From a virus: 64,000 nucleotides of DNA. Position numbers and translations under genes: made by a program. This document shows, piece by piece, positions 3,001 through 56,111 of this stretch (position 1 is its first letter; each line of letters starts with the position of its first letter). The notes beneath the pieces are model-generated. The model searched no databases and was not told where the DNA came from. It saw only the letters and a program-made list of their open reading frames with translations. The DNA lies in IMG/VR virus record IMGVR_UViG_3300022744_000001, positions 322,022 to 386,021 of that record; one strand, given 5' to 3'.

Positions 3001-4368
3001 CAAGTCCACCGGGTTCCGGAACAACCGAAGCGAGATGCCACGCTCAATGAGCAGGTCCCCACTCAAGAACTCCGCCGTCCGCGACCCGTACTTGGCCTGG
3101 TCTGCGTCAGAGAACTGCACGTTCCCAGAGTCATCCACCTGCACCACATCCGCCTGCCCAGGGGAAGTCAGCGAGGAAACCCGCACTGCACTGGTGAACT
3201 GGTAAATGTCTGCCTTTTTCTCCACCGTGTACGAGCTGGACGCCACCGAAGGGAAGGGTGGGGCCACCGTAAGCTGGGTGTTCGACACCGCCGTGATCTG
3301 CCGACGCGCCCCAGTGCCAAGGACAACAATGTCCCCCACCTTGACTTTGTCCGAGACAAAGCTCGCCGCCCCGTCTTGGAGCACCGAGGTCGAAAGGAAG
3401 GTGGCCGTCCCCGTGGGAGCCCCCGACTTCTTGGCCCGGAAGATGAGATCCGCCCCCTCCGAGGGGAGCGAGGAAATCACCGAAGGACTCGTAACGGTGC
3501 CAATCGTTTCACGTGAAACGGTCTTGCCAGTCTGGTACAGGACGCCGTCATAATAGACGGTTTCCCCAGCATTATTGGCCAGGTCGGTCGAGTTGAAGCG
3601 GAGGCGGCCTGTATCTCGAGCCCATTCCACCGTGCCCTGCACGGGGTTCACGGAGAAGGCCCCCTCGTTGGTCACGCTGACCGGGCTGAGATACATGCCG
3701 AACCCGAACCGGATCAGAGGCTTTCTCGAGGACGAGCTTGGGATGGGGTTGAGGCACAGGACGTCGTTCGTGTCCCCCAGCGCGCCCGTAGACTCCTTGA
3801 GCCCGAAATGGTTTTGCCGTTGAAAATAAACGGTTTGACCGTCCTGGCTGAGGAGGTCGTTGGGGTGCCAATTCAGGTTGCCCGTGTCGAGGCTGATCTG
3901 CACACGGCCCACAGGGGGCGTGGTGAAAGCCGCATCGTTCGGAACGAGGATCGCTGGGAACGTCGTACCGCTCCCAATAGAGCCCACCGAAACGCGGATG
4001 GGGGCCACTGAGACCGAAACCGTGGGCGGTGCGACTTTCAGTCGGGTTGTGTTCGCGTTCGCATCGAGGACGCCAACAACGGCGCGAGATGAGCCGGGGA
4101 GCGGGCGGAACCGCTGTCCCTGTCCATCGTAATCGAACCTCTGGATGCCCCCTTCGTTCTTGGTCCACCCGAACTCGGCATCCGCAAGATCGCCATCAAC
4201 AAGGCTGAGGACAAGGTACTCAGTACGACCAGGGTCTGACTCATCGGTCCCATAGACCGAGTTGTAGCTACTCTGGCTCGAGATGAGGTTGTCAGGGCTT
4301 GCCGTGAACGGCGAGTTGGCCGCGCCGACCCGAGGCTTCTCAAGAACATAACCGCTGAAATTCGCCAT
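1..4368 (-). CDS. Giant virion structural protein (baseplate wedge / tail-fibre-like), >1456 aa, 3'-truncated by window edge; absent from ORF track
   Basis: ATG at 4368 gives MANFSGYVLEKPRVGAANSPF...; the same frame reads ...KTYRVGFDVTLDVDKGYLLY at position 1. The track reports no closed ORF in this frame. T/G/V/D-rich beta composition; follows spike genes; the + ORFs 184, 1084 and 1969 are its antisense shadows. Confidence 0.85.
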   Translation of the reverse strand, partial: MANFSGYVLEKPRVGAANSPFTASPDNLISSQSSYNSVYGTDESDPGRTEYLVLSLVDGDLADAEFGWTKNEGGIQRFDYDGQGQRFRPLPGSSRAVVGVLDANANTTRLKVAPPTVSVSVAPIRVSVGSIGSGTTFPAILVPNDAAFTTPPVGRVQISLDTGNLNWHPNDLLSQDGQTVYFQRQNHFGLKESTGALGDTNDVLCLNPIPSSSSRKPLIRFGFGMYLSPVSVTNEGAFSVNPVQGTVEWARDTGRLRFNSTDLANNAGETVYYDGVLYQTGKTVSRETIGTVTSPSVISSLPSEGADLIFRAKKSGAPTGTATFLSTSVLQDGAASFVSDKVKVGDIVVLGTGARRQITAVSNTQLTVAPPFPSVASSSYTVEKKADIYQFTSAVRVSSLTSPGQADVVQVDDSGNVQFSDADQAKYGSRTAEFLSGDLLIERGISLRLFRNPVDLNAKDPDLKDVSTFYPVPESVLADPIIAQPTVYLPVLPIDDPAYPLVVQVEQGTGTFTGVLPRLDVGSPPAGYGYTLDFDGRQIVFAARKNATVVAVPGRSAAVQLPDPLVEPSNATFELNQGAGYVPLTNGVDALLEPTSGVVTFISQQGTVLAEGTGTVATPTMLQDLSADFVAAGVAVGDFVVVPAGPLKGVYTISSFSTTDLNVDPDFPGVATGVPYEVRSGKEVLADRFWQEIALVDPLTVVERIRSNVTTQLVQGVDYILSPDLGLIQFRERMLALDEIRITYASANDPENYTQERATFLVRKEITTHSTPASNIPFNPSGRTVATNPAPSVYRGGRPQTSDQVQINSSSITFLPDVIPTSSGALVVTDALPHGPIVQPTENVYIDYYVYEALGGENTIQVLNPPINLAKVAITDGESSFDIIGDWTQEFQANRLMRIEQEQVYYITSVTYDGSKTTVTVSGTFRDSFSDPKIYISSGDISLTPPSYFVLESASYDAVPRGMNLVKVQGDKSLTYVAGTILYFSGTGFQEFYQVTGAKYNADTDRTEISITQAVARQYQAPGATLRRSVRPIFESTATTVRTSESPLVMPPATTVADSVVVFRQTSGSPGVILIEGTDFKIDDSGKIDLATPLQPEEEVSIFYTRYRFVTGNLRASYTASISPSDQNGLLNQKLTASFTTFTPDSFFFRVETMTNFRAEVAQDYKDEATSSSPSGGPRTSNSSTPKLYEQGVESVFFTEGHLANEDIIARATLEQYNDAVNYLEDLLQNMDGRVVGDYDGKFKFDGSTGAVRSSFASAHNQIDDKFKLSKFPIDPTPPLFPLKYLGTYLKAYQPSTSSRFFPTFRNRFGYTIAGDDTNAKTKDEILDFQAKNLTGSTNASRRSPRALLTRSAKAGDVTIYVDTTAKVDTAPYRPAFANSQKVVVQGPDGTFYVHQGSPLTISSKSSTSLTFSAGLPVDVPLGATVYLADSDTAYRKTYRVGFDVTLDVDKGYLLY

Positions 4369-4415
4369 TTCATCCCGTACTCATTTGTTCCCAAGGTACC
4401 TGGGAAAGGTTGTAT

Positions 4416-4985
4416 TCAGAGAATGCTGCCTTGGCCGACCCCAGAAGACCCCATGGGAGTCGGCGCTCCTACAATGGGGATCGGCAAAGTAAAAACTGCG
4501 AGGGTCATCTGAAGCGCCAGCGAGATGGCAGACGCCTTTTGGGTCGCGCCCGTCCCCTTGATATCTACCCCGGCAAACCCCGCCATAAGGAAAGGGAAAG
4601 CTGGCCCGCCAATCACTTTGGCCACCCCGGTACCTGAACCTACCGTTGGGTGCTGGGTGGTCATGATTCCCTGGATAAACCCGAGCCCGAGCCCCACGCC
4701 CAACCCTGTTGCCTCTTGAGGGGCCATTACCCCGAGCTGCCCGTTCACAGGGTAAGCTGCAAGTAAGCTGGCGATGAGAAGAGGCGGAGGTACCGCAAAG
4801 GGTAAAAACCCCACCCCGACGCCGAGGGTGCCCGCGTCTACGGTGACCACCTTGAGGGACTTGACCCAAGCACAAACCCCGTTGGCCACCCCTTGGGCGA
4901 GTTTGGGCACCCCTGAGCCGGTCATGGCTACGCCCCTGAGCCCAACGATGAGGGCGCCGGTCAATCCTGCGGGCGTGAGGGGCAT
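4416..4985 (-). CDS. Gly/Ala-rich spike-associated (tip-like) protein
   Basis: 189 aa, abuts the spike gene; function inferred from position only. Confidence 0.5.
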   Translation of the reverse strand: MPLTPAGLTGALIVGLRGVAMTGSGVPKLAQGVANGVCAWVKSLKVVTVDAGTLGVGVGFLPFAVPPPLLIASLLAAYPVNGQLGVMAPQEATGLGVGLGLGFIQGIMTTQHPTVGSGTGVAKVIGGPAFPFLMAGFAGVDIKGTGATQKASAISLALQMTLAVFTLPIPIVGAPTPMGSSGVGQGSIL

Positions 4986-4986
4986 G

Positions 4987-7158
4987 TCAAATTGACCTCA
5001 CCGTTGCGCACCCCTGCAAAGGGAGCCCCGTGATCCAGTCAAGGGAGGGAGAGCCCGGGGGCTGCATGGGAAGCCCTCGAGCAACCCCGAGAACCGCCGC
5101 GGCCCCACCAAGCAGAATCTGTGGGGCCGTCAGGCTGATTGCCACGGACGCCACCATGTTGATCGCGAGCCCGGCTGTGAGCGAGATGGCGCCCGACGCC
5201 GCCGAAAGGGACATGGCCCCTGCTGCGGTCGAAAGGGACACTGCACCCGCCGTGGTGGACATGGAAATAGCCCCCGTCCCCACCGTCACCGACCAGGCCC
5301 CCGCCACGTTGTTGAACGAGGTCGCCCCTGCTGTCACCGTGGTGGTTCGTGCACCCGCCACAAGCGTCTCGGCGATGTTCCCGAGAAGGACCGTCGTTGT
5401 CCGCCCGCCCGTCGCAATGGTCTCCGTGATGAGCTGGGCGTACATAGCCTGGCTCTTGCCCGAGATTACCTCGTTCTTGGAGCCATAGTTCCCCGTGAAG
5501 GAGTTCAGGGCGTTGATGCTCACAGTGCTCGCCTGCGAGCTGTGGCCGCCATCCACGGTCATCTGGTAGGCGCCGTTAACGACCTCGGTCAGGTTACCCG
5601 AGATGGCCGTTTCCGCGTTGCCCTGCACGTCCATGCTGTGGGCCACGTCGTCCGTGCTGTTGCCGTTGCCCCGGTAGACGTTCTTGATTGCCCCACGGAA
5701 GTTGGTCGTGATGCACTGCCCGTCTGCGTTCGGGCCAACGTCGAGGAACAAGCCGCCCTCGAGAGTCAAATGCAGGGAGACGCGGTCTGGAGTTGAGGCC
5801 CCGACACGCATCTTGATTGCGCCCTCGGAGTTGATCTCTGCCGAGACATTCTTGGAGCTGTAGTTCTCCACCGTCGAGCCCGGCATGTTGACGAACAATT
5901 TGCCCTGCTTCGAAACCGCCATGGCGAATTCGCTACGAGACGCGCTACGGGGCGGGAGCAACCGGAAGAGGTACCCGCCAGCCATCGTGAGGGCTTCATC
6001 GACTGCCGTGGAGGGTGGGCGCAAGCACTCCTCGAGCCGGAAGCCCGCGGGGGAGGCCGTCTGGTCAAAGTCTTCGAAGAGCTTCGGCTTGAGCACTCGA
6101 GCGTATTGCCGCTGCCCCTGAGTGGAGAAGGCATCGTTCCCCACAACTGTCCCAAAGACCTGCTCGATGTAAGCCCGGGGGCGGTCCATCGAGAAGCCAT
6201 CGACCTCGTCGAGAACCTCCTGTCGCAACTCCGTGTCGTGACGGATCTCCATGCGACGCTCGGTAAAAGCCCGCAGAGGCCCGCCGTTGAGCGCGTCTTC
6301 GAAGTCCACCGCCGGAGCTTCGGAGGGGACGAAAACCTGCCGCCCGTTCGTGTAAGTCGTGGGCGGAAACTCATTGCTGTCGTTGATGCGGTCGAGCACC
6401 ACGCCACTCGTGTTCGAGAAGGTGGAACCCTGAACGCCCGCCGCCGCAAGCTCCTCACGCCCAAAGTAGCGTTCGGACGAATCCTTCAAAGTCTTCGTGG
6501 GGTTACCGTCCTTGTCCGTACGGAAAATCCAGGACGGGAGGTTCATCGCGCCGCGGCGGACGGCACCGGAAAACACGTACGCGGCCGAGTCTGAGGCAAC
6601 CTGGTTGATCGCCTGGGACACCAGGGTCCGATCCACATCCCGAAGCTCGAGGGAGTCCCCGGCCCGGTTCATCAACCGGACGTCCTTGGACAGCTGGAAC
6701 TCCGCGCCAGAGGCCGACATACCGACGATGTCCCCCTGCTTGCCTCGAATGCGCTTGTACCGGATCGTGGGCCCGTACAGCTTGGCCAGGTCCGCTGCGT
6801 CCGCGGGGTCCACCTCGGAAGAGGGTACCGGAGAGAACGGGTCGTACCGAAGCCCCGCCAAGCTCCCTACCGGAACGTAGCCAAGAATCACCGCGTCGTA
6901 GATCTGCTTGCTTCGACGCCGGTACCCAATAATGACCAAGCTGTTGACCTCGGGGATACCCCCAAGGAACGACCGAGGGCCGCACATCGCCTGAGTGAGG
7001 TCCAGCTCGAACCGTTCATCACTCCCCATGATGCGGACGTCCGCCTTCAAATGGTGCTCGTCTACCCGGGTAAGGATACCCAAGCGGGTCGAGTTGAACG
7101 GAGAGTCCCCGGTTGAGAACTCCTTGTCTGGAACCTTGCCGTACGGAACTTTCGGCAT
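4987..7158 (-). CDS. Baseplate central spike (gp5/VgrG-like)
   Basis: OB-fold-like N-terminus (GGIPEVNSLVIIGY); C-terminal S/T/G/A beta-helix-type repeats (GAISMSTTAGAVSLSTAAGAMSLSAASGAISLTAG); follows the hub gene. Confidence 0.75.
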   Translation of the reverse strand: MPKVPYGKVPDKEFSTGDSPFNSTRLGILTRVDEHHLKADVRIMGSDERFELDLTQAMCGPRSFLGGIPEVNSLVIIGYRRRSKQIYDAVILGYVPVGSLAGLRYDPFSPVPSSEVDPADAADLAKLYGPTIRYKRIRGKQGDIVGMSASGAEFQLSKDVRLMNRAGDSLELRDVDRTLVSQAINQVASDSAAYVFSGAVRRGAMNLPSWIFRTDKDGNPTKTLKDSSERYFGREELAAAGVQGSTFSNTSGVVLDRINDSNEFPPTTYTNGRQVFVPSEAPAVDFEDALNGGPLRAFTERRMEIRHDTELRQEVLDEVDGFSMDRPRAYIEQVFGTVVGNDAFSTQGQRQYARVLKPKLFEDFDQTASPAGFRLEECLRPPSTAVDEALTMAGGYLFRLLPPRSASRSEFAMAVSKQGKLFVNMPGSTVENYSSKNVSAEINSEGAIKMRVGASTPDRVSLHLTLEGGLFLDVGPNADGQCITTNFRGAIKNVYRGNGNSTDDVAHSMDVQGNAETAISGNLTEVVNGAYQMTVDGGHSSQASTVSINALNSFTGNYGSKNEVISGKSQAMYAQLITETIATGGRTTTVLLGNIAETLVAGARTTTVTAGATSFNNVAGAWSVTVGTGAISMSTTAGAVSLSTAAGAMSLSAASGAISLTAGLAINMVASVAISLTAPQILLGGAAAVLGVARGLPMQPPGSPSLDWITGLPLQGCATVRSI

Positions 7159-7161
7159 AAC

Positions 7162-10100
7162 TCACCCAGTGAGCTGAGCCAGCCCACCCTCCTTCTGGGC
7201 AATGTCCTGCTCAGTCTGCGCAAGCTCTCTCTGCAACTCCCCCACGTCGTCGGTACTGTGGATCTGGGGGTTCTGTGCGTCAGAAATTCGCTTGCGAAGG
7301 CGGTCAGCTTTCGACCTCAAATTGGTCAACTCCACACCGGCTTTCTTCGCCTTCGTGGTCTTACGCAAATCTGAGCTGAAATTCTTGAGGCTGTTCTGCA
7401 TCGCGTCCAGCGAGGACTTGCCCATCTTGGCGGTAGCCAGAGGGTCCCCCACAGCAGCACGGTTCAAAGCCGAGAATGGGGGCGCCACGCCAGCCACCGA
7501 CTGGTCGTCTGGGGTCGAGAATAGGTCGGGTAGGGTTTGCGTGCTCGGCTCTACACCGTTGGGGTCGCCTCGCAACGCATTCTCCACCGGCTGATGAGCT
7601 TCATCGAGGGCGGAGTAGAGATTCCAGAGATAGCTTTCTACCCTTGAAGTCAGCTCCGCCCCACCCTTCAAGTTGGCGGGCTTCACGTAGGACGAGGAAG
7701 CGCTAGTGATAGCGTCTACCCCAAACTGCGTCGTGTTGCCTTGCGCCTTATCGAAAGCGGACAGAGCCGCGTTGAACTCATCCTCGGTCAAAGTCGAGTC
7801 AGGGGTCGAGCCGGTGAGCAAGTTCGTCTGGTACCCGTAGTTGATGAATGCCAGGTCTGCCCGCCCAAGCTGGCATTCACAATTCGGGTCCCCAGGGACC
7901 TCGCCAAACTTGACGGTCATCTCAGCCAGCGTGAGCGCCCGAGAGAGCTGTGAGGCTTCTACGCTCGTGGGGGCGCCTTGTTGCTCCATGGATCCCAAGG
8001 TCGCGGTATCCACGAAACTCGACTCGGTATCCACGAACTGCGGCTTTGTGCCGAGCACCTGGTCCGGCACCAACGCCGCGGCCGTTTGCAAATCCTCCGG
8101 TTGGAGACGAGCAATCGCATCCGAAGGGTTCGGGTACACGGACGTCTGCGTAGTAACCCCTTGGGACTGGGCGGTAAGGGTGGCAAAAAGGTCTCCAGAG
8201 AGTGCAAGCTGGGTCTCCCCCAAGCTGCCCTTTACCGAGCCTCCGTTGCCCACTCTCTTGTTTGGCTCATTGACGATGAGCGCTCCATCTCGAAGCGAGA
8301 TCCCTCGCCCATAACGGTAGTGGCCAATGACCTCAAACCCACGATCATCCGAAACCGGCCGCACCATGGTCGTCGGACTGGTGAGGCTCGGGTCATCCTC
8401 GAGCAAAGCCACCGTAGCGCCGTCCTGAATCACCTTGATGTTCTTCTGCGGAAGAAGGGTCATCTGGGAAATGAATTTGGACTGGTCGTAGGCGTAGAGG
8501 TACACGCCCGAGGAGTTCAACCCGTAGGTGAAACGGTTGTGAGCATACTTGTTCTGAAGCTGCGAGATCCGGTCCACCTGCTGCTCGCCAAGTTCCTGCA
8601 AGTTGGTTTCCTGGTTCTTAGCAACTCGCGCCTGGTCTTTCTTTGGTACCTGCGCGTTGGTGCCCGGAGCCTTGATTCCAGAGGCGTTGGTAAAATACTC
8701 GCCCTCATAAGGTCGAGAGTAGACCATCACCACATTGGGGAAGCCCACGATTCGCCCCGTCTTCGGGTGACGAAGCACAAGGGGCTCGTACGGGGTGAGC
8801 GAGTTCGAGTCCTGCGGGTCGAGGTTGATGGCCGGGATGAACCCTGCATTGCCCACGTCCAGCTCGAACCCTGAGCTTGCCGCCTCTCGAGCGGAGACCA
8901 TTTGCTTGGAAGAGTCGGTCTTAGCAAAAGAATCCTTGTTCTTTGGCTTCAACGTCCCCATTCCCTTGATGCCGATGAACTTGCCCCGTCGAGCTGTAAG
9001 GGTGAGGGTGGTAGTCGCTCGAGAGCCGAACGAGATGTTGTGGCTGATGCCTTTGATGTACCAAACCTGGTCTTTTGGGGCGACATAGATCGGGAACCCC
9101 AACCGCAACTCAGGCCGGAAAGGAATGGTAATCGTTGCCGAGTGCCGTCGCGAGTTGATTCGGTCGAGCACATCGAGGCCGTGAAAGTACATCTTTTGCA
9201 GGTTGTCACCGAGGAACTCCGACGGGTAGGGCTGCGAACGCCACCCGTATTTCCGGAGAAGGTGGTAGTCGGTAACGCTCGTATAAGGGGTCAACTCCGC
9301 AGGTGCCCCATACTCTTTGTTGCCGAAGAACCCACCTTGCATGGTCAACTGTGTGACTACGTCGGCCTCCGACTCGGAGAAATCCCAGTCGATGATGTCA
9401 ATGTCCTGGACCCAGCTCACCGGCTTGTTCGAGAGAATGTCCAAGTTGTAGAACGGGGGCTTGAAAACGATGTCCCCGGTCACGTCCATGTAGAACTCGA
9501 ACCCGATCGCCTCTTTGCATTGGTTGGCGATTTCCAGCTTTGTCTGGTAGTCGTTCTGCCAAAAGTTCGTGACACCCTCGCCGATCTGACCATAGTCGTC
9601 ACGGAAGGCGGTCACATTCTCACCCGCAGGGTCAAACCCGAATGGACCTTCCACCGGGTTACCATTACGAATTGAAGAGCAGACGAAGTTCTTGACCTCG
9701 TTGAGCTTGCCGCTCTTGTAGGTCTCTGCCAGCGAGTCACCACGTACAGCAACGCCCGAGACCCCGTAAAGCACTAGGCTGGAGCGAATCCTCGCGAACC
9801 GGCTCTCCCAATAGACCATGATATCGGAGAGGGCCGCAGTGAACGTCTGCTGCTGTTTCTGCTCCTGAACCAGGCTTTTGAGGGAACCTGTCGCCACGAT
9901 GACGTCGCCGAAAGCCATCTGGGCCAGGGTGAAGATCACGTCGTAGGGGTTGGTCCCAAACAGGACGTTCCCGGACAGGGACTTGCCGAGCTGAGGGGTC
10001 TGTCCAAGGAAAGCGGGGTTGATGTTCAACCGGCAAATGTCCCACCACTTGAGGATGTCGGCACAGTTGATAGTGACCGTGTGCTCCCCGCCCGAGTAGC

Positions 10101-10470
10101 TGTCGGAAACCTCGGTCACGAGCCCCCAGAAGACCGGGTAATACTGGGGAATGCCCTCGAGAAGGTAGAACCCCTTCGCGAAGATCTCGACCTCCATCAT
10201 GGGCGAAATGACCGGTACCCCATCGAAGAAGAAGTCGTCCACCGTGTGGCGGGGGATGGACAGGCTGACGGTCGCGCTGCCAGGCACGCTGTCGATGTCC
10301 AAGTTGACCTGGATACTCGTGATGTACTTGGACAGGTCAAACTTGCGTTTGCAGCTCGGGCACCCAAGGACGTCCTGCTCCCCGTTGATGTACACGAGGG
10401 CGTCCGGAGCCGTCACCACGGTAGGGCGAAGGTTCGGCTGAAAGGTGCCTTGGAAAGGACTGCGGGCCAT
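7162..10470 (-). CDS. Baseplate hub protein (gp27-like) with C-terminal extension
   Basis: Motifs EFYMDVTGDIVFKPPFYN and ATITIPFRPELRLGFPIY...WYIKGISHNISFG..ATTTLTL typical of hub proteins; synteny. Confidence 0.75.
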   Translation of the reverse strand: MARSPFQGTFQPNLRPTVVTAPDALVYINGEQDVLGCPSCKRKFDLSKYITSIQVNLDIDSVPGSATVSLSIPRHTVDDFFFDGVPVISPMMEVEIFAKGFYLLEGIPQYYPVFWGLVTEVSDSYSGGEHTVTINCADILKWWDICRLNINPAFLGQTPQLGKSLSGNVLFGTNPYDVIFTLAQMAFGDVIVATGSLKSLVQEQKQQQTFTAALSDIMVYWESRFARIRSSLVLYGVSGVAVRGDSLAETYKSGKLNEVKNFVCSSIRNGNPVEGPFGFDPAGENVTAFRDDYGQIGEGVTNFWQNDYQTKLEIANQCKEAIGFEFYMDVTGDIVFKPPFYNLDILSNKPVSWVQDIDIIDWDFSESEADVVTQLTMQGGFFGNKEYGAPAELTPYTSVTDYHLLRKYGWRSQPYPSEFLGDNLQKMYFHGLDVLDRINSRRHSATITIPFRPELRLGFPIYVAPKDQVWYIKGISHNISFGSRATTTLTLTARRGKFIGIKGMGTLKPKNKDSFAKTDSSKQMVSAREAASSGFELDVGNAGFIPAINLDPQDSNSLTPYEPLVLRHPKTGRIVGFPNVVMVYSRPYEGEYFTNASGIKAPGTNAQVPKKDQARVAKNQETNLQELGEQQVDRISQLQNKYAHNRFTYGLNSSGVYLYAYDQSKFISQMTLLPQKNIKVIQDGATVALLEDDPSLTSPTTMVRPVSDDRGFEVIGHYRYGRGISLRDGALIVNEPNKRVGNGGSVKGSLGETQLALSGDLFATLTAQSQGVTTQTSVYPNPSDAIARLQPEDLQTAAALVPDQVLGTKPQFVDTESSFVDTATLGSMEQQGAPTSVEASQLSRALTLAEMTVKFGEVPGDPNCECQLGRADLAFINYGYQTNLLTGSTPDSTLTEDEFNAALSAFDKAQGNTTQFGVDAITSASSSYVKPANLKGGAELTSRVESYLWNLYSALDEAHQPVENALRGDPNGVEPSTQTLPDLFSTPDDQSVAGVAPPFSALNRAAVGDPLATAKMGKSSLDAMQNSLKNFSSDLRKTTKAKKAGVELTNLRSKADRLRKRISDAQNPQIHSTDDVGELQRELAQTEQDIAQKEGGLAQLTG

Positions 10471-12350
10471 TATTCAAAATCCTCGGCTGAGACGTACCCT
10501 GGAGGGGTAGGGGTCGCGGCCTCAGCGGGAAGAGGGACCGACGAGTAGTCCTCATCCCCCACTGGCTGGGAGGTGGTCGGAAGAACCATGCGCTTTGAAA
10601 GGAACTGCTGCGCCTGGGGCTCGTACATGGGCGGACCATCAAGCAGGAAAGTCGCCCGCACAGTGAACTGGAAATTGTACTCCAGTGTGTAAGGCGAGGT
10701 TTCCGACTCGGTGATGTTGAAGTTGTCGAAGGAACCGACGTACAACGTGTTGTCGTAGTAGACGTACATCGAGCCTACCAGCGACAAACGGTTCAGGAAG
10801 TTGGTCTTGCTGTCCGAGTTGTCCTGACCCGTCGTGTAAAGGTTCGCGTTGTTGCGATAGAGCAAGTAGAGGGACAGGAAATTCTGGTAGCTGGCAGAAT
10901 ACTGCCGCGCACCACGAGTGAGCCCGGGGCTCTGCCCCTCGGCGTTCGGGTTTGGGGAGGCGGCGTCGATAGCGAAGAACGCCGCCACTTTGCCCGACGC
11001 TTCGATCTTGTCCTGGTTCTCGCCCCAATGCTCGACAATGGGGCCGTTGCGAGTCCAGTTGCCGTCCGAAACGATCTTCTCCGAGCTGATCTTGAACGAG
11101 CTTGGGTTCACGAGCAGGCGAAGGGGTGGGGCGTCCCGAAGGGCATTGAGAGCCTTGACCGTGTTGGCGATCTCGGCTCGCTGGGCGTTTTGGTACTTGG
11201 CCTCCATCAACGACCGGAGTTGGTTTTTGTCCGCGGTCTTGGCGACTTCCTTCTTGGCGCTCGAGGCACTGGCGCTACCACTACCCTGCCACTCGGCCGG
11301 GGCGGCTTCGGGCTGAGCTACTGGCGTCTTGAAGGGCGAGAGGCCGTTTCGAAGAACAAACTCTTGTGCTGCTGCGATACGGTCTTTGATGCTCTGCGGG
11401 GGCTTTGCATGCAGCTGCCCTGCATCCGCCAGCGAGTCGATCGTGATCCTGCCGTCTCGAGCTGCCTTGGGGTTGTCACTCACCGCCTCAGCTTGCCGCT
11501 CCGCGTTCTTGAACCTACCCGCATCTTGGGGGTGCGCCGCAATCCAGGCGTCCTGGGTCTCCTTGGAGGCGTAAAGGGAGCCATCAGGGTTCTTGTAGCC
11601 CCCAAACGTGACGTAATTGATGTACGCCCGGTCTTTCCCAGTGACCTTCCCCTTGTAGTAGTTTTCCACGTAAGGGAGCTGTTGTTCCGCTGAGAGGGTG
11701 CAGAACTTGTTCCAAGTGTCCTGGTCCATTCCAATACGTTTGCTTGTACCAACACGCTGGATGAACTGGCACAGACCTTGAGCGTTGGATTTGTCATTGT
11801 GCGCGGTGGGGTCGAAACCGCTCTCCTTGTAGAGCACCGCTGCCATCTCGTAGGGGTCGCACTGAAGCCGCTGGCACATCAGCACGTAGGAGTTCCAGAA
11901 CGAATCGGGTAGTCCTGCCCCCTTGGCATTCGGGCCGACCTCTGCGGTAACCCGACCGCTGGGAGCTACCGAAGTCACCTCCGCGGCCACATCATCGGTC
12001 ATCTCGACCGGGTCCGCTGTGACGTCCCCAATCGACGCAGAACGGTTGAGGAGCCTGCCCGTGATGTTGACCTGGGGAGGGATGATCCCTACCACGAACA
12101 ACTTGGGGTTGGCCTTCGTCTGCGAAACCGGGATGAATGACGTGTTCGCGTCGTCCTCAACTCGAAAATTCGAGAAGAACCCGAGCAGGTTGTACATCGA
12201 GGGGACGTAGAAGTCTGCGTTCAGCTCTATGTCGTTGGCAATGCTGCTGCCCTTGGTCCCAGCGGACTTCGGGGTTACCAAAGCATTGGACCCAGTTTGC
12301 GGCGGGAAAACCAGGTTTTCGTAGCTGGTAGGGTCTTGCTGGTCAGCCAT
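10470..12350 (-). CDS. Baseplate/tube-initiator protein with lytic transglycosylase (SLT) domain
   Basis: SLT signature AAVLYKESGFDPTAHN...AQGLCQFI; C-terminal domain (LLVNPSSF...VEHWGE...YVGSFDNFNITE..PYTLEYNFQF) paralogous to 12353..13018. Confidence 0.8.
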   Translation of the reverse strand: MADQQDPTSYENLVFPPQTGSNALVTPKSAGTKGSSIANDIELNADFYVPSMYNLLGFFSNFRVEDDANTSFIPVSQTKANPKLFVVGIIPPQVNITGRLLNRSASIGDVTADPVEMTDDVAAEVTSVAPSGRVTAEVGPNAKGAGLPDSFWNSYVLMCQRLQCDPYEMAAVLYKESGFDPTAHNDKSNAQGLCQFIQRVGTSKRIGMDQDTWNKFCTLSAEQQLPYVENYYKGKVTGKDRAYINYVTFGGYKNPDGSLYASKETQDAWIAAHPQDAGRFKNAERQAEAVSDNPKAARDGRITIDSLADAGQLHAKPPQSIKDRIAAAQEFVLRNGLSPFKTPVAQPEAAPAEWQGSGSASASSAKKEVAKTADKNQLRSLMEAKYQNAQRAEIANTVKALNALRDAPPLRLLVNPSSFKISSEKIVSDGNWTRNGPIVEHWGENQDKIEASGKVAAFFAIDAASPNPNAEGQSPGLTRGARQYSASYQNFLSLYLLYRNNANLYTTGQDNSDSKTNFLNRLSLVGSMYVYYDNTLYVGSFDNFNITESETSPYTLEYNFQFTVRATFLLDGPPMYEPQAQQFLSKRMVLPTTSQPVGDEDYSSVPLPAEAATPTPPGYVSAEDFE

Positions 12351-12352
12351 GG

Positions 12353-13018
12353 TTAGCCCTGCCCTTCAGGAGTAGGGTCTGTTGCGGAGGACCCTACCCT
12401 CTGGAAATTCGGTACTGGAGGATTCGACCGAGAGCTGAGGGGGATAGCCTGCAAGATCTTTTCAACCTTGAATGACCATGAGAGCTTGAACACGAACGGA
12501 GAGTCGTCGGTCTCCTCAACGCTGAAATTGCGGAACGTCCCGATGTATGTCCCGCGGTCAAACATGAGCATGACCCACCCCTGCAACACGATGTTGCCGA
12601 AGGGGTCGTAGACGCTACCGTTGTTTCGGTAGAGGTCGTAAAGGTCTCGGTACCTGTCCCAGGCGATGGTTCGTTGGCGAAGTACCGAGGAGAGGCCCGT
12701 GTACAGGTTGATGAACGCCCCTGTGGACTGGTCCACGGAAATCTCGCTGAGTTCATCCCCCCAGTGCTGCTCAACAAACCCCCCTCGGGTTTGGATGCGC
12801 TCGATCTTCTTGTTGAAGCTCTCCGCGAAGCTCATGGGGTTTACATGAGACACCAGGGCGTGAGGGAGCAGCGCCTTTGACTCGTCGTAAGGGCTCGTAA
12901 TCTGGAACGCGAGCGGGATGTAGTTCCGACGCGTGTCCGCACTGTGCTCGTAAACCCGGTTACCTGGGCTATCGAGCCTTGCAAACTGTGATTGGTTAGC
13001 CGAGCGAATGTAAGCCAT
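12353..13018 (-). CDS. Tail tube initiator / baseplate protein (gp48/gp54-like)
   Basis: HVNPMSF...TRGGFVEQHWGD...YIGTFRNFSVEETDDSPF; directly downstream of tape measure. Confidence 0.7.
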   Translation of the reverse strand: MAYIRSANQSQFARLDSPGNRVYEHSADTRRNYIPLAFQITSPYDESKALLPHALVSHVNPMSFAESFNKKIERIQTRGGFVEQHWGDELSEISVDQSTGAFINLYTGLSSVLRQRTIAWDRYRDLYDLYRNNGSVYDPFGNIVLQGWVMLMFDRGTYIGTFRNFSVEETDDSPFVFKLSWSFKVEKILQAIPLSSRSNPPVPNFQRVGSSATDPTPEGQG

Positions 13019-13030
13019 CTCGGTACCTCA

Positions 13031-16000
13031 TCACTGGTATTTCTCGCGGCGCTTGTACTCGTAGATCCCCTCTGCAATCTTTTGCTTGAGGAAGTTCGCG
13101 AGGTCCGCGCCGCCGATCCCGTTCACGTTCACTGTCATGCCGCCGGAGCCACCACGGCCACCGGCAGGGACGATCTTCTCCCCCTTGCCCACGGACGCGA
13201 GCCCTTCACCTGGGGAGGCCACCACGGCCCGGCCAGCCGCAATCCCCACCACGTCCCCGCCAAGGGCATTACCTTGCAGCTTGCTAGCCTCGTACGAGTT
13301 AGCAAGGTCCGCCCCCACCCCCGAGGACTTCATGCGCTCGAGCAAACGGGCCTGGTCCGTGGTCGAGTACATGGCGTACTCGAACAGGGCCGTACGCATG
13401 GCGTCACGCACCACGTCCTTGTACGAGCCCGTGAGCTGGGTCTTGTCCAGCATGATGCCGCGGCGCCGGAGCGCATCGTAGAGGTTCTGGAAGCTGTTCA
13501 CCATCTCTCGACCATTCTCGTCGAGAACGTCCGCAGCATCTCGTTCCCCAACAGCCCTCGTTTGAACACTGGGAGTGGCGGCTACCAAGGGGGCTCGAGC
13601 CGCCCCAGGGGCTGCTGTGGGGGTCGCCCCTGGAGCCACTGGAGGCATAACTGCTCCCGGGGCCGCAGCGGGGCTCCCCGGCTTCATGTACGCCGACTGC
13701 AACGTATTCAAACGACCCAAACGACCCAGGTCACTCTGCCCCAGGGTATAGATCGATTTCTGAAGCATCTGCTCAAGCTCATCCCGGGTAAGGTTCGCCG
13801 CCTGGGCCCCCGCGCCGAGCGAACCCTTCATCAAGTAAGCGTCGTAAAACTGCTTCTGACGCTTCTCATCCAAACCCGACATCCCCAGGGTAGAACGAAC
13901 CTTTCCAGCATCATCCCCGATTACCGTTCCAAGGTCCTTCAACAGGGAGTCTTTGCTGACCGCTTTGCCCTTCTCCTTCAAGCCGCCACTGAGGTTGCGC
14001 ATGGACGCCTCAGCAGCCTTAAGGACCGCTTGTCGAGAGGCCGCCGAGTCAAACTGAGTGGCCGCCGCTTCCTGTAGCTTGTCAATGATTTTGTCGTTCT
14101 TCCCGGTTCGACCCTTCTCGAGCACATCCCCAACATTGACGTGCTTCTTACCTCCAGGGAAAAGACCGATGATCTCGTGGAGCCCGTCAATGAGGCTTCG
14201 CAACGCCTTGTAGAGGTAATTGAAGATGCCATCCACGATCATCCCCACCTTGTCCTCGATGGAGGTGACCAACTTGCCCTGCTCTTGAGCCAGCCTCAAC
14301 TGCTTCTGAGCCTCAGACTCATCTGGCGGGTTGACTCTCTCTAGGATGGAGAGAACATCCCCTGTGGAGAGCTTGTCCAAATCCTCAGCGGAGGTAATCT
14401 TGCGAGCCGCAAGCTGCTCCAGGATCTTGGCTTGCTTGTCCTTGTCCGCCATGTTGCCAGCAAGAGCACTGGCGAAATCCCGTTTCTGGGACTCGATGCT
14501 GAACCGCAATGCCACCATCTCTCGGAATTGTTCCTCAGACATCTGGTACTGATTGCGAAGAGCCAATCCTTGGTCCCCAGTGATCTGCTCGATGTCCTTC
14601 CCGTAAGTGTTCTTTGCTCCTCGCTCAAGCATGTCCAACATGGCAGCTGGACTAGAGTTCCCCATGGCTGCGCCGGTACCCACAATGCCAGACGCGTTCT
14701 CTTTTTTGTCCTGACGTAGCTCGAGGAAAGTCTTTAGCAGGCTACCTCGAGCAGCATCCGGCACCTTCTCAAGAGCTGTTTCAAGGGCCTGGTTATTACC
14801 CTTCATAAAGTCTTCGATGAGGCTACCCAGGCGGTCGATGTTTGCAGCCGACTTATCCCCTGTCTGCCCAGCAACATCAATAATCGCAGCCTGCACCTTA
14901 CTCGCAATGTCCTTGCCCACAGTCGCCTGGGAAAAGCCCTCTCCCGCATACGCCGCGACACGAACGCGCTGGAGCTGGTCCATCTTCTGAACGCCAGACG
15001 CCGCAAATTGCAGGAACTTCCCTGCCTCACGAGGGTTCATGGACTTTCCAAGCACTTTGAGCAAAGTAGCGGCCGACTCAAGGCGAGTGTTGTAAAGCCC
15101 CAAATCTGACGAAACGCCCCGAAGAATCGAGAAGAATTTGTTGGTAGCGATGCCGCTCTCTGAAGCCTCGCGGGTCATGCGAGCGAATTCGAGCTTGGTA
15201 CCCGTCACGCTCTTTCCCATCTCTGTGAACATTTCGGCCTGAAAGTCCGAGATTTCCTGCAACGAAACGCCCATCAATCGAGAGTAGGCCAACGAGGTTC
15301 TAGCAAGCTCGCCGAAGCTCCCGACGTCTGCCGCAGACCGGTGCGCCGACTTCTGCACATTGTCGAACGCTTGCTCGAGTGACTTCAAGGAGGCGCCCTG
15401 CTGAGCCAGGGCGTTGGTCACTTGGATGACCTGATCCTTCGTCGAACCCCACTTGAAGTTCTCGTGAATGTCAGTAGCTTGGTCCCGGATTGTGTCGAGA
15501 GTGCTGCTTACCTTGCCAAACGCTTGGTCTACGTTCTTGGTGTTCCCGTACAAGAACTCCGCAGAGCTTGCACCCTCCAGGATTTGCTTGTTCATCTCCT
15601 TTGCGTGCGCCTCAATGTCCACGAGAAGTTTGACAATGGACATCATCACGCTAGCGGACATGGACAGAATGGGGCCGAGCTTGGACATGGTCGTAACCAG
15701 CGGCCCGAGTCCCGACAGGAGCTTCCCAAACCCCTCCATTTTCTTGTTGCCAGAACCGGTACCCGCAATCTGCAAGTCGCGGCCCCACTTCATGCCGAGC
15801 TTACCTGCGCCCTTCATGAGTTGAGCTGCTGCGCCTGCACCCGCTCGAGCCACACCAAGAGGGTCACGACCCGACAACGAGCCGATTCCATCCGCAAAAC
15901 TCTCCGCCAGGTTTTTACCAACCGTCGCGGTCTTGAGGTCGGATAGCGCCGTTTGGAAGTCCTCGGCCGCCTTCTGGCGAGACGCCACTTGCTCCCCGTG

Positions 16001-16552: not shown

Positions 16553-16555
16553 CTA

Positions 16556-17869: not shown

Positions 17870-17877
17870 GGCCTACC

Positions 17878-18978: not shown

Positions 18979-19002
18979 CTCTCACCTCTTGGTGCGAGAT
19001 GG
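18975..19002 (-). promoter_or_regulatory. Hairpin occluding SD and start codon of chaperone 1
   Basis: Minus strand CCATCTCGCACC-AAGA-GGTGAGAGATGG; the 3' side holds the GAGG SD and the ATG at 18978. Confidence 0.55.
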
Positions 19003-19031
19003 GCGCGAAGCGGAGCCCACGGACTTCCTAT

Positions 19032-19113
19032 GTCTTCAAGGTCCGATTCGATCCCATCTTCATACGTCCATTTGCATCTGACCGGGGGCCTCAACCGACT
19101 GAGGCCCCCTGGT
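19032..19113 (-). promoter_or_regulatory. GC hairpin + NARATG repeat element (after tube gene)
   Basis: Stem GGGGGCCTCA/TGAGGCCCCC within 19081-19113, no U-tract, then CAGATG CAAATG ... AAGATG. Confidence 0.55.
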
Positions 19114-19118
19114 TTGGA

Positions 19119-19841: not shown

Positions 19842-19853
19842 GGTTCAGACTCC

Positions 19854-19882
19854 TCTTCCCCTGGTGGCCCTAATAGAAGGTT
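19854..19882 (-). promoter_or_regulatory. Putative late-type promoter (YYYYTAT-N13/14-GRAGA)
   Basis: AACCTTCTAT-N14-GAAGA upstream of tube; same architecture at 25867, 36413, 48741, 57519 and 60348. Confidence 0.5.
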
Positions 19883-19883
19883 C

Positions 19884-25836: not shown

Positions 25837-25940
25837 GTCCATCCTCGTGCCCGTGAGCGCGGTAGTTCTCCCTCTGAGAGAACACATAGAAGCTTTCACC
25901 GCTTCGTAACAAACTTCGCTCAGGTTACAGGAAAACCATG

Positions 25941-25986
25941 AAAAAATCAAGGCCCCCGTGAGGTGTCCCCACGGAGGCCCTAGATT
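25941..25986 (-). terminator. Intrinsic terminator after sheath gene
   Basis: Minus: GGCCTCCGTGGGG-ACA-CCTCACGGGGGCC then TTGATTTTTT. Confidence 0.7.
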
Positions 25987-26004
25987 ACACCAACGCGAGT
26001 CCTA

Positions 26005-30385: not shown

Positions 30386-30468
30386 GTTCAATCCGATCCG
30401 ATCTGGGTATGTCCCACCACGGCCCGACAGGACTGAGTAGGTTCACCGTACAGCGGGTAACGAAAGCA

Positions 30469-39301: not shown

Positions 39302-39353
39302 AATCTGGGTCTACAGCTACATCTAAGCGGCCCCTGGAGGTACCCAGGGGCCG
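39302..39353 (-). promoter_or_regulatory. GC hairpin + hexamer repeat element
   Basis: Perfect 10-bp stem CGGCCCCTGG/CCAGGGGCCG, no U-tract, then TAGATG TAGCTG TAGACC CAGATT. Confidence 0.55.
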
Positions 39354-46156: not shown

Positions 46157-46753
46157 TCACCTTCGGGGCTTCTTCCCCTTCGCAGGAGGCGGCCTAGAGG
46201 TAGATCTTCCGGCCGGGGGCGGCTCGGATAGGGGAGCCTCGTCCTCCGACGTTTCTGGGGCTTCTGAAGCCTCGTCCCGTCGATTCGCTAAAGGATTGCC
46301 TGGGTGTTGTCCCAAAGCTCGCGCATCAGGACGACGCGGGTCAATCTCCTCAGCCGTACCCTCCTCAAGCTTGACAGCTTCGTCCAGGCTCTGTTTCTCA
46401 GAGTCGTAGAGCGATTTTGCAACCTTCACCACTTGGCGAAGAGCAATGACTTTGCCTTGAGCCTGGTACTTCTGAACCTCAGCCTGAATGCCAAGATTCT
46501 GGAGAATCGCGGCACCCCGCAAAACCCATCGCTTTGCGAGGTCCCCTTCCTCCATCGACAAGGTGCCTTCCTTGATGTCCTTGTCGATGTTGGCGGTCAA
46601 ACCCTCCACGGCGGTTTTTGCCGCCGTGAAGGCTGTCCGGGCACCTGCCAGCTCGCTTTGCTCCCTCTCGGCAATCTCGAGCTGGTCATCCAACTTGACC
46701 CCCACCTCGTGATAGGTGAGGGCTTTGATTTCATGCTTTAGTTTGTTTCCCAT
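46157..46753 (-). CDS. Coiled-coil hypothetical protein
   Basis: 198 aa, helical N-terminus, disordered C-terminus. Confidence 0.7.
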   Translation of the reverse strand: MGNKLKHEIKALTYHEVGVKLDDQLEIAEREQSELAGARTAFTAAKTAVEGLTANIDKDIKEGTLSMEEGDLAKRWVLRGAAILQNLGIQAEVQKYQAQGKVIALRQVVKVAKSLYDSEKQSLDEAVKLEEGTAEEIDPRRPDARALGQHPGNPLANRRDEASEAPETSEDEAPLSEPPPAGRSTSRPPPAKGKKPRR

Positions 46754-46786
46754 TTACATTCCTTTGGGGCCCAAAGGGCCCCAGGA

Positions 46787-50992: not shown

Positions 50993-50996
50993 GGAG

Positions 50997-53743: not shown

Positions 53744-53765
53744 GTACCTCTAACGAGGTTTCAGG

Positions 53766-54453: not shown

Positions 54454-54471
54454 TGGAAGCTAGGTACACCG

Positions 54472-54510
54472 AAAAACAAAAGGGCCGCTCGGTTTTCCCG
54501 AGCAGCCCTT
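54472..54510 (-). terminator. Intrinsic terminator after major capsid gene
   Basis: Minus: AAGGGCTGCTCGG-GAAAA-CCGAGCGGCCCTT then TTGTTTTT. Confidence 0.85.
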
Positions 54511-54530
54511 CAAGTACCTACGCTGTCCGG

Positions 54531-55403
54531 TCAGACGCGCGTGACGATCAAGCGCGTGAGGCCGCGGGGGTTGAACGCCCCGATGCCCACGTTCTCGAAG
54601 CACGAGAATCCGATCGTACGAGCCTTGGGGTCGTCCGCCGAGAGCACGGTGAGTTCCGTACGGACGGGGAAGCGACCGAAGTTCTCGGGCTCGCAGCACA
54701 CGTAGATGAAGCCCGCAGGTACCAAGCGGCTCGTGATGATCTGGGCGCCCCAAAGGGTTGCCTGGAGACCAGTCTTGAGCAACACGGCCTGAGACTCGAT
54801 GTCCAAGATGTCACGGCCGAACTTGCGAATATCCGCGTAGTCCGTGGCGTTCATGTAGATACGAGCCACGCGCAAGTCGTGACGCTCGATTTCCGCGAAC
54901 GCATCCGCAAGCACCGAGGGGCTGACCGGGGCCACGACGTTGATGTCGGGGTTGGTCTGACCGGCGAGGGTGTCGAAACCCGAGACAGCGATGCTGTCCA
55001 GGATGGCGAACACGCGCTCGTCTTCCGCCGCCTGAATCTGGGCCTTCGCCAGGTCCTGAGCACGCTCGATGAGGTCGAAGCGGCGCTCCTTGATCTGGGT
55101 GAGGGGGATTTCAGGGTTCGAGGCGATCTCGAACAAGGGGAAGATCACGCGGCGAGGCTTCTGGATGGCGAGGATGTTTTCACCCTCTTCACCCACCACG
55201 TACGCCGTGACATCCGGATCCTTGTCGTAGATCGGCAGGGCACCATCAGGGAGCTGCTCCACGAGGAAGGTCTTACGACCCACCGCCGTGTAGTCGCGCC
55301 GAGAACGGAGCGGCTGAATCATCGAAGCAGCGAGCTTCGCGCGACCGGCAGCGGTCTTGATGTACTCGCTGATGATTTGCTGTTTGACTTCGTTGCTAAC
55401 CAT
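54531..55403 (-). CDS. Major capsid protein (HK97 fold, Bxz1/E3-like large myophage type)
   Basis: PLRSRRDYTAVGRKTFLVEQLPDGALPIYDKD...FEIASNPEI...IKERRFDLIERAQ...AAED; strong SD; followed by terminator. Confidence 0.93.
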   Translation of the reverse strand: MVSNEVKQQIISEYIKTAAGRAKLAASMIQPLRSRRDYTAVGRKTFLVEQLPDGALPIYDKDPDVTAYVVGEEGENILAIQKPRRVIFPLFEIASNPEIPLTQIKERRFDLIERAQDLAKAQIQAAEDERVFAILDSIAVSGFDTLAGQTNPDINVVAPVSPSVLADAFAEIERHDLRVARIYMNATDYADIRKFGRDILDIESQAVLLKTGLQATLWGAQIITSRLVPAGFIYVCCEPENFGRFPVRTELTVLSADDPKARTIGFSCFENVGIGAFNPRGLTRLIVTRV

Positions 55404-55424
55404 GTTCGTGCCTTCCTTTCTTTT

Positions 55425-56042
55425 TCAGACCCGGAGGTCCAGCACGAGCATGGGCGTGTTGGCGTCAGGAGCCGCCTTCACGATGCCCATGATGGTTGCA
55501 GATCCGCCCTGAAGAACCTCGTAAGAGTCAGCAGAGCGATTGGTGAGGAGACCGTTCGCGCTTGCGTAAAGCAAGTCACCGGCCGCATAGGTCAGAGCGG
55601 TACCCGCCGAGCCACCCTGAAGCTGGGCAGTCTCGTAGAGGGTCACTCCGATGCACGAGCCCGAACCGCACACGTACGGTCCACGACCGCTGGCAACGCC
55701 AGGGGTGTTCTCGTACGCATTGCCGACGGCATCATTGATGAAGATGCCGAGGGGTCGGATACCGGCAAGGAACGCGGGACCCGCGTTCACGACCGGGCCA
55801 CCGATCACGTTGTTGCCAGCCTGGGGGCGAGTGAAGGCGACAGAGCCGCCCAACACACCGACCTTCGTGATGTTGGCAAGAGTAGTAGACTTGACGTTGG
55901 TGCTCGTGTAGACGACCGGATTCGCCTGGGTGAATGCGTCGGCTGCCAAGGCACCCACAGAATTGCGGGTGACAATGTGGAACAGCTGCACTCGACCAGA
56001 GGTCTCCTTGAAGTCACCCGAGCTTTGTCCGTACATTGGCAT
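55425..56042 (-). CDS. Capsid decoration/cement protein
   Basis: RPLGIFINDA...ASG.....G...T.YET...YAAGDLLYASANGLLT...GIV beta-tulip-like pattern; immediately before MCP. Confidence 0.75.
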   Translation of the reverse strand: MPMYGQSSGDFKETSGRVQLFHIVTRNSVGALAADAFTQANPVVYTSTNVKSTTLANITKVGVLGGSVAFTRPQAGNNVIGGPVVNAGPAFLAGIRPLGIFINDAVGNAYENTPGVASGRGPYVCGSGSCIGVTLYETAQLQGGSAGTALTYAAGDLLYASANGLLTNRSADSYEVLQGGSATIMGIVKAAPDANTPMLVLDLRV

Positions 56043-56076
56043 GAATGCTCCTTGTAGAGAAAAGCGGGGCTACCCT

Positions 56077-56111
56077 CATTTACATTTTCATCTAGGCAGC
56101 CCGACGGGCTG
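56077..56111 (-). promoter_or_regulatory. GC hairpin + NARATG repeat element (after scaffold)
   Basis: CAGCCC-GTC-GGGCTG then CC TAGATG AAAATG TAAATG. Confidence 0.55.

Follow-up and report, generated by a model that had tools for sequence, protein, structure and literature searches.

A hairpin-linked array of tandem YARATS units at late-gene junctions of uncultivated huge phages

In Bacillus, the sites of TRAP and HutP consist of tandem NAG units with a 5–7-nt period, placed in a leader beside a hairpin, with one unit for each subunit of a ring protein. Related designs are found in phages. The T4 gene 32 operator combines a pseudoknot with UUAA(A) repeats that reach the ribosome binding site (RBS), and that of gene 43 combines a hairpin with the adjacent sequence; in both, the structure lies 40–70 nt upstream of the start, and the protein nucleates there and spreads along the 3' tract (PMC3014915). 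The sites of RegA include the AUG, and RB69 RegA selects UAA triplet repeats (PMC3014915). In transcription elongation, a small RNA hairpin in the leader recruits LoaP, and the ops hairpin, formed in non-template DNA, recruits RfaH (PMC12691694). Here, we describe an element of comparable architecture in a 64,000-nucleotide stretch of DNA (hereafter, the window) that spans bases 322022–386021 of the IMG/VR virus record IMGVR_UViG_3300022744_000001. The source genome (G000) is 447,761 bp long, has 59% GC and direct terminal repeats, and is rated complete. The element is a stem-loop followed closely by tandem copies of the word YARATS (S = G or C), and no description of it was found in literature searches or in Rfam. 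The kind of device, a leader hairpin with tandem single-strand words, is known; the word, the distribution in huge phages, and the likely reader are new.

All genes of the window lie on the minus strand and belong to a one-strand late block of ~145 kb, as delineated with a codon-usage gene caller. The original prediction, made from the letters of the window, had listed six intergenic copies of a GC hairpin without a U-tract that is followed by NARATG hexamers. The positions and letters given are right for the minus (sense) strand, to which all module coordinates below refer, and the six sites are real intergenic gaps between minus-strand genes (33–186 nt each, 551 nt in total). At every site, the stem is GC-rich, 6–11 bp long, unrelated in sequence to the other five, and separated by 0–5 nt from the first unit, with no U-tract. 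It begins 3–14 nt past the upstream stop at five of the six sites and ~35 nt past it at site 3, which has the longest gap. The six gaps hold 14 strict NARATG words in the sense orientation (25 per kb) and 2 in the antisense, whereas 5000 shuffles averaged 1.65 such words and never gave more than 8, and the word occurs at only 1.4 per kb in the other 16 co-directional gaps and 1.8 per kb in the coding sense; this enrichment is biased, the gaps having been picked after the motif was seen, and the unbiased support comes from relatives. The strict words are distributed as 2, 3 (plus one at a start codon), 3, 1, 1, and 3 over sites 1 to 6, and several of the hexamers originally listed (GGGATG, GGAATG, TAGCTG, TAGACC, CAGATT, AAGATT, and CAGACG) are degenerate.

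IMG/VR holds many relatives of G000, with genomes of 320–530 kb. We compared two complete ones, G001 (407 kb) and G002 (437 kb), whose neighbouring genes share 45–83% protein identity with G000, together with individually fetched loci (L-numbers) that cover 41 distinct relatives at the site 3 junction and ~20 at the site 6 junction. Arrays recur at the same junctions throughout this set. Those matching sites 1, 2, 3, 4, and 6, as well as site A, one further late junction of G000, carry arrays in both G001 and G002. At the site 5 junction, an array is found in G002 only, the orthologue of the downstream gene not having been found in G001, and at site B, the other extra junction of G000, there is no array in G001 and the orthologue was not found in G002. 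While the arrays persist at orthologous junctions, the hairpin sequences and the remaining spacer have diverged. The site 3 junction of the 41 relatives contains 148 units in sense and 29 in antisense, the latter matching the number expected from shuffling (27.7 +/- 5.5), and CAGATC alone has a sense-to-antisense ratio of 40:0. Units at this junction cluster around -50 and -110, and none lies 30 nt or less from the start.

The repeat itself is real, but the relatives redefine its unit. The conserved form is Y-A-R-A-T-S rather than NARATG, relatives mostly use AGATC or AAATC, and the ATG is not essential. The core is preceded by C in 45% of units and by T in 37%, R is G in 71%, and units end in C in 43% of cases and in G in 38%. 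An array is made of 2–6 such units in tandem with a period of 6 nt, sometimes 5 nt: across 66 leaders, ARAT cores are spaced by 6 nt 60 times, by 5 nt 32 times, and by 12 nt 14 times, compared with about one occurrence each in shuffles. The orientation is nearly absolute, with 64 sense arrays and 1 antisense array in the ORF-free (open reading frame-free) stretches of all fetched loci (binomial p = 4e-18). Chance is ruled out for the array family as a whole, and the original prediction of a recurrent, non-random cis signal holds, the words being above their chance level and the arrays conserved in relatives.

The association with a hairpin is also general. A perfect stem ends no more than 9 nt upstream of 31 of the 64 arrays, compared with 4 of 64 for a stem downstream and 17% for random positions; a second stem detector gave 25 of 49 arrays against 11% at random. 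At site 6, the layout shared by ~20 distinct relatives comprises a small stem-loop (base C-A...U-G), a CC spacer, tandem words, a C-rich box, a Shine–Dalgarno (SD) sequence, and a 205-aa gene, with TAGATG, CAAATG, or GAATG in 2–4 tandem copies and GATC or AATC words in more distant relatives. This hairpin is present in 16 of 18 distinct orthologues. Its pairs 1–2 are fixed (C-G, A-U), and pairs 3–4 covary among G-C, A-U, C-G, U-A, and U·G, as tabulated from hairpins aligned at the stem base; multiple alignments of the module with MAFFT misregistered the 5' arm, so no covariance model was built. In many of these relatives, a separate strong hairpin stands right after the stop of the 460-aa gene, which implies that the small clamp hairpin belongs to the element. 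Array-adjacent stems contain 11 G·T and 2 A·C mismatches, against 328:283 at random (p = 0.03, or 0.19 with related copies merged), an excess that points, weakly, to structure formed by the sense strand. Hairpin loops are heterogeneous (GTC, GTTAA, TTCAGT, GTAC, TTT, and others), and a single relative has UUCG. These data establish a genuine module with strand specificity, a regular period, an associated hairpin, and conservation at orthologous junctions.

Strong arrays number ~6–10 per genome and lie almost entirely within the late block, which in G000 carries ~8 copies, including at least two outside the window, upstream of genes for 1527-aa and 2377-aa proteins. Under a strict definition, there are 13–18 arrays per genome, against 3–10 in shuffles, and since they are few and concentrated in late gaps, a dispersed genome-wide repeat was rejected. 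The original prediction had placed the copies next to major structural genes, and they do precede major virion genes, but they also precede genes for low-copy giant proteins. Over the three genomes, arrays stand ahead of 5 of 15 genes of at least 1400 aa and 24 of 1588 shorter ones (Fisher p = 4e-6), an association that comes from ~3–4 independent orthologous junctions; in G000, four of five giant genes have an array when judged by eye. With low-copy giants and a capsid module downstream, tuning the stoichiometry of major subunits, as first proposed, is only one possibility. About ten arrays in G000–G002 end in or overlap a start codon that has no clear SD. At G001 82001–82078, an array sits between a stop codon and a U-tract terminator, which is followed by a GGTGTA promoter.

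The individual copies differ in the number of units and in their distance from the downstream gene. At site 1, a stem-loop without a U-tract (TTCCCAGG-TAC-CTTGGGAA, 4388–4406) lies 9 nt past the stop of a 189-aa gene. It is followed by CAAATG ... GGGATG AAATG (4366–4387), whose last unit holds the start codon (4368–4366) of a 1964-aa gene, and units are present at the orthologous junctions of G001 and G002 too. Site 2 opens with an 11-bp GC stem-loop (19084–19109), 9 nt past the stop of a 240-aa gene, and continues with CAGATG CAAATG GACGTATG AAGATG GGATC GAATC GG (19043–19080), an array that lies ~65 nt ahead of the SD and start of a 366-aa gene and is kept in L053–L055, G001, and G002.

Site 3, upstream of a tail-hub-like gene of 1425 aa (DUF2460), is composite. 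Its middle stem-loop, GCCACAT-CTTTCT-ATGTGGC (30366–30385), is followed after 5 nt by a lone CAGATG (30355–30360) and then by the proximal array GAAGATG AAGATT AGATG CAGACG (30308–30331), which ends 25 nt from the start of the tail-hub-like gene, with an SD between array and gene. Further upstream, a distal stem-loop with G·U pairs (30411–30433) adjoins CAGATC GGATC GGATTG (30389–30405); the original prediction overlooked this distal module (30389–30433) because it is written with GATC rather than GATG. Site 4 pairs an 11-bp GC stem-loop (39328–39353), 10 nt past the stop of a 251-aa gene, with TAGATG TAGCTG TAGACC CAGATT (39302–39325). The array ends 2 nt from the start codon of a 100-aa DUF5659 gene that has no SD, and orthologous arrays are found in G001 and G002.

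Site 5 is weak in the window. Its 8-bp GC stem-loop (46765–46783), 3 nt past the stop of a 643-aa gene, is followed by a remnant, AAAGGAATG TAAATG (46751–46764), where the one strict unit is the start codon of a 198-aa gene, just as the last unit is at site 1, and AAGGA is a normal SD. In relatives, G002 has a clear array (AAACC AGATG AGATG AAAAATG), AAATGTAA is kept in L002, L008, and L009, and L001 has none. The copy in the window could be a decayed one. At site 6, the clamp stem-loop CAGCCC-GTC-GGGCTG (56097–56111), whose C-G and A-U pairs and CC spacer are kept in relatives, leads into TAGATG AAAATG TAAATG (56077–56094), 34 nt ahead of the start of the 205-aa gene, which is itself followed by the HK97-type capsid gene.

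The six sites are best read as instances of a cis-regulatory module, specific to this clade of uncultivated 320–530-kb phages, that occupies late-gene leaders and intercistronic spacers. We give a probability of about 0.45 to the proposal that this module works at the RNA level, as a leader or intercistronic operator in which a clamp hairpin and a repeat platform are read by a multimeric or cooperative factor that controls the downstream late cistron. Such a module would comprise a stem-loop of free sequence, a 0–5-nt spacer, and 2–6 tandem Y-A-R-A-U-(G/C) units on the sense strand, positioned 0–70 nt upstream of a late cistron (at site 3, also ~110 nt). The hairpin may act as a clamp or nucleation point that keeps the repeat tract single-stranded, and the tract would be read unit by unit by a single-stranded RNA-binding factor, encoded by phage or host, that sets translation initiation and/or the fate of the downstream message. 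At sites 1, 4, and 5 and in several copies of relatives, the array terminates in the start codon, and a bound factor would sit directly on the initiation site; at sites 3 and 6, where the array stops 15–20 nt ahead of the SD, the factor may spread, hold the leader open, or stabilize the message. A period of 5–6 nt suits readers of single strands (TRAP-type or SSB-type binding) and not readers of the double helix. Phasing at 5–6 nt, the strand bias, a short and constant distance to a stem that covaries, and a unit number that varies all suggest recognition of a single strand, and a mode of action through the sense strand fits the same period, the 64:1 bias, the covarying stems, and the excess of G·T over A·C.

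Comparison with described operators supports the architecture and sets the module apart from each of them. It resembles the T4 gene 32 operator in the order of its parts, a hairpin, 0–5 nt, and tandem words running toward the RBS, with several arrays reaching the start codon. It differs in using YARAUS in place of UUAAA, a simple hairpin of free sequence, and ~8 late genes rather than one autoregulated gene. Similarly, the ~10 arrays of G000–G002 that end in a start codon recall RegA operators, which are unstructured, A/U-rich, and located at the AUG of many mRNAs, whereas most arrays lie well upstream of the AUG, have a hairpin partner, and in relatives contain AUC units without an AUG. Units that begin with YAG or YAA every 5–6 nt are reminiscent of TRAP and HutP sites. 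A TRAP site, however, has 9–11 (G/U)AG triplets with 2–3-nt spacing rather than 2–6 units, a HutP site has two sets of three UAG with 4-nt spacers rather than a spacing of 3 (or 2) nt, and in the phage module, the core extends to A-U after AG, with no terminator/antiterminator alternative evident. Only every second triplet fits the A-R-N pattern of an Hfq distal-face (ARN)n site.

Several observations weigh against this RNA-level operator. Among the families searched in the phage genome, no candidate for a reader protein was found: TrpBP (PF02081) gave no match, with a control that matched in B. subtilis and a search confined to the phage genome; Hfq (PF17209) and HutP (PF09021) gave none; and the RegA family search was negative, as was its positive control. 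For the TRAP- or Hfq-style reader first suggested, no homologue of TRAP, Hfq, or HutP was found in the phage genome. Arrays are predicted to be more unpaired (0.56) than their flanks (0.40 and 0.45), but shuffled arrays are equally unpaired, so that selection for single-strandedness is undetectable beyond base composition. Some arrays, such as the site 1 orthologues, lack a hairpin, and the wobble test of G·T against A·C weakens after related copies are merged. Many arrays lie 35–60 nt or more upstream of the start, outside the ribosome footprint, and simple occlusion cannot explain these. The ~6–10 strong copies per genome limit single-genome statistics. Finally, we infer the RNA level, the reader, and the effect of the module from its pattern, and the dependence of the RNA level on inference also counts against the proposal.

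A bolder reading, which we advance tentatively and consider doubtful, is that a dedicated phage factor reads the stem-loop together with phased (YARAUS)n and thereby licenses transcription or translation of the giant virion genes and the capsid module. This factor might be the NusG paralogue of the clade, loaded at each module, or else an RNA binder that has escaped recognition, either TRAP-like or a zinc ribbon (FmdB-type) encoded beside arrays. If so, both the class of viral cis element and its reader would be new, and if that reader were a NusG paralogue or a new ring protein, the logic of antitermination or attenuation would be carried over to giant-gene viruses. Beyond promoter guesses, almost nothing is known of how uncultivated huge phages control their genes, and here a compact signal marks the same late junctions in dozens of them. 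The module can serve as a marker for annotating late leaders and as a concrete experimental handle, and it is a possible partner for orphan proteins such as the NusG paralogue, the FmdB zinc ribbons, and DUF5659.

The other ways in which the same pattern might arise involve transcription elongation, RNA decay, initiation, and ribosome standby. We judge it unlikely that the NusG paralogue recognises the module or is loaded there for processive antitermination or pause control, with which polymerase could pass the U-less hairpins and giant genes of the late block. The clade does encode an NGN-KOW protein: in G000, a NusG-like protein of 380 aa is encoded at 398620–399762 (minus strand; L178:673–1815), ~12.6 kb past the window end. 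It scores 22.5 bits for KOW (cut-off 22.3) with NusG as the best PDB matches (2lq8, E = 3e-4), and it is conserved in G001 (59% identity) and G002 (36%), but its NGN score of 16.8–19.2 bits is below the Pfam cut-off. The preference of arrays for giant genes would suit such a factor, with the caveat on independent junctions given above, and the sense bias and G·T excess fit nascent RNA and the non-template strand alike. Known specialised paralogues are recruited by leader elements at the head of very long operons (PMC12691694), as RfaH is by ops and LoaP by the dfn hairpin; they use one element per operon without tandem 5–6-nt repeats, however, whereas the phage has multiple copies in one block, no ops consensus (GGCGGTAGnnTG), and no shared UNCG loop. 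In addition, arrays in or overlapping start codons are unexpected for the loading of an elongation factor. Somewhat less probable again is that the module is an endonucleolytic processing or stability site, its repeat tract offering clustered cleavage sites to a phage RNase or a host enzyme of the RNase E/G type. Cleavage would leave the upstream cistron with a protective 3' hairpin and the downstream cistron with its own 5' end and half-life, and an array ending in AUG would give rise to a leaderless message. The GC hairpins stand right after the stops of well-adapted genes (those for the 460-aa, 643-aa, and 240-aa proteins have top codon scores), and leaderless starts are indicated elsewhere in the phage by GGTGTA-N8-10-ATG at 101 of 270 motifs. 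RNase E prefers R-N/W-U-U (cut at the slash), which the A-R/A-U core, in a single-stranded tract beside a stem, fits on paper. T4 gene 32 leaders, moreover, keep conserved RNase E sites at -71 (PMC3014915). Yet the motif is far more specific and conserved than usual RNase E sites, cleavage has no need of strict 6/5-nt phasing, and at site 6, relatives already have a strong hairpin ending the upstream cistron, which makes the clamp hairpin an extra one.

We consider it improbable that the arrays act at the DNA level, as a late promoter or late-activator site, with the hairpin terminating the preceding unit. They are oriented, lie upstream of late genes, and end 25–45 nt from the starts at sites 3 and 6, so that leaders would be short; moreover, ~8 copies over the late block is a plausible number of promoters, and the window, where GGTGTA boxes are rare, yielded no other obvious motif for a late promoter. 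However, unit number (2–6) and distances vary, double modules occur 50–60 nt apart, a 5–6-nt period would place successive units on different faces of the duplex, several arrays reach into the start codon, and the site 6 clamp hairpin covaries at a fixed 2-nt distance. A promoter role is likewise unfit for the array at 82 kb of G001, which precedes a terminator and a separate GGTGTA promoter. The AT-rich ATAAWGYTTTYGTT upstream of the site 3 modules, with a similar AATAATCCTTCAAT found in relatives at site 6, makes a better candidate for a promoter, and if it is one, the modules lie inside the leader. Intrinsic (Rho-independent) terminators share with the module a GC-rich stem-loop a few nt past a stop, but a repeat tract replaces the U-tract, and site 6 in relatives has a separate terminator-like hairpin ahead of the module. 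That identity was rejected for the six sites, where the GC stem has no U-run after it, the first 9 nt past it containing 2–4 T; a terminator scan lists none of them on the sense strand. As the original prediction stated, the copies are distinct from ordinary U-tract terminators, such as that at 54479–54511 in the window, which has TGTTTTT. The lowest probability goes to a factor-independent translational enhancer or standby site, in which a weakly structured, purine/A-rich tract kept open by the hairpin would let the 30S subunit wait beside the RBS via S1. In its favour are the location of the tract 15–20 nt upstream of the SD, arrays predicted to be less paired than their flanks, and some downstream genes without an SD (site 4). 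Against it, no specific word would be needed, and yet a 4–5-nt core stays conserved and phased across 40–80% protein identity, shuffled arrays are just as unpaired, and distal modules at -100 to -150 are too distant.

Simpler identities were tried and rejected as well. The units are not a start-codon context, since only 2.4% of starts have ARA ahead of the ATG and 53% have C at position -1. They are not SD-like, and while GAUC could pair with the 16S tail as an extended anti-SD contact, this phage uses GAUG. Mini-uORFs or start–stop pairs (ATG TAG, ATG AAA ATG TAA) exist in this phage only, relatives with ATC units having no ATG. The unrelated sequences of the six stems exclude REP/BIME-type palindromes, and a switch in which arrays would pair with CATCT/GATCT near the RBS finds the antisense words at chance (29 vs 27.7). 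For a sigma-70-type promoter, a promoter scan of window positions 1–20000 lists none at sites 1 and 2, and units aligned to TATAAT lack the -7 T. A regular-expression search for a T-rich late motif after stops matched only 2 of 37 gaps and did not capture the arrays. Rfam 15 gave no match at the gathering score or at E <= 0.1 over the window and the loci of three relatives. A canonical multisubunit RNA polymerase was not detected in the phage genome, and a search of the phage for a T7-type RNA polymerase gave no match, nor did its control.

Other features of the genome touch on its transcription. The (C)GGTGTA box, of which the 101 copies counted above in G000 lie 8–10 nt ahead of ATG with a peak at 9 nt, shows a similar peak in G001 and G002. 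It is mostly found outside the late block, with window copies at 54465–54470 and 25986–25991, and it is a compact promoter-like box that would give leaderless mRNAs. A protein from a 358-aa frame with a weak match to Sigma70 region 2 (G000:18717–18827, minus strand; L052; E = 0.0017, below the cut-off) is a possible phage sigma factor for this box. The AT-rich box ATAAWGYTTTYGTT occurs at ~30455–30470 (minus strand) and in L057–L129, at or just past the stop of the FmdB-type gene and upstream of the site 3 modules, and AATAATCCTTCAAT lies upstream of the site 6 clamp hairpin in L017–L022; both are candidate late promoters. The NusG-like protein has an NGN-like N-terminus and a ~220-aa C-terminal extension, and its gene adjoins a clamp-loader-like AAA+ gene.

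Few window genes could be named: they encode an HK97-type Phage_capsid protein, the DUF2460 tail-hub-like protein of 1425 aa, a UvrD-type helicase, an FmdB-type zinc ribbon of 144 aa, and the 100-aa DUF5659 protein. A PHROGs search of window and flanking genes gave no match, Pfam gave almost none on the flanking genes, and the 643-aa protein had no tblastn match in the phage GenBank collection. The FmdB-type gene (Zn_ribbon_8; 30469–30903, minus strand) has the site 3 modules directly downstream, and in several relatives FmdB-type genes have ARATS arrays directly upstream (L073:884, L078:919, L113:826, G001:139507, and G002:359616). Since arrays flank these genes, the FmdB-type zinc ribbon is a candidate reader or autoregulated gene. 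In a gene for a Rossmann-type protein (GxGxxG, E1/ThiF-like), the N-terminus itself is written as an array, AGATG AAGATG AAGATC (M-K-M-K-I; G000:444323–444339, minus strand), and the copy at G002:286668, AGATG GAGATG AAGATG, would encode M-E-M-K-M.

The head module downstream of site 6 includes the HK97-type capsid gene (290 aa; 54531–55403, minus strand; Phage_capsid match) and, 21 nt upstream of it, the conserved 205-aa gene (55425–56042, minus strand), whose product begins M-x-M-x-GQSSGDFKE. The orthologues in G001 and G002 are also ~207 aa long, and the 205-aa gene is therefore probably a conserved head gene in its own right rather than a broken capsid gene. The 460-aa protein encoded at 56124–57506 (minus strand) is very acidic and rich in Q, D, and E, has the top codon-usage score in the head module, and is conserved in relatives only over its N-terminal 140–200 residues; it looks like a scaffold protein. 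A GATC-rich stretch at G000:20340–20420 (AGATCTAGATC ... GGATCTTAATTTGATCCATATGATCC), in a gene-poor gap of 1.5 kb, differs from the late arrays and may be an origin-like or methylation cluster. A UvrD/REP-type helicase gene of 1233 aa (22249–25950, minus strand) lies within the virion gene block, with a GGTGTA box before the gene and a 16-bp hairpin overlapping its start region.

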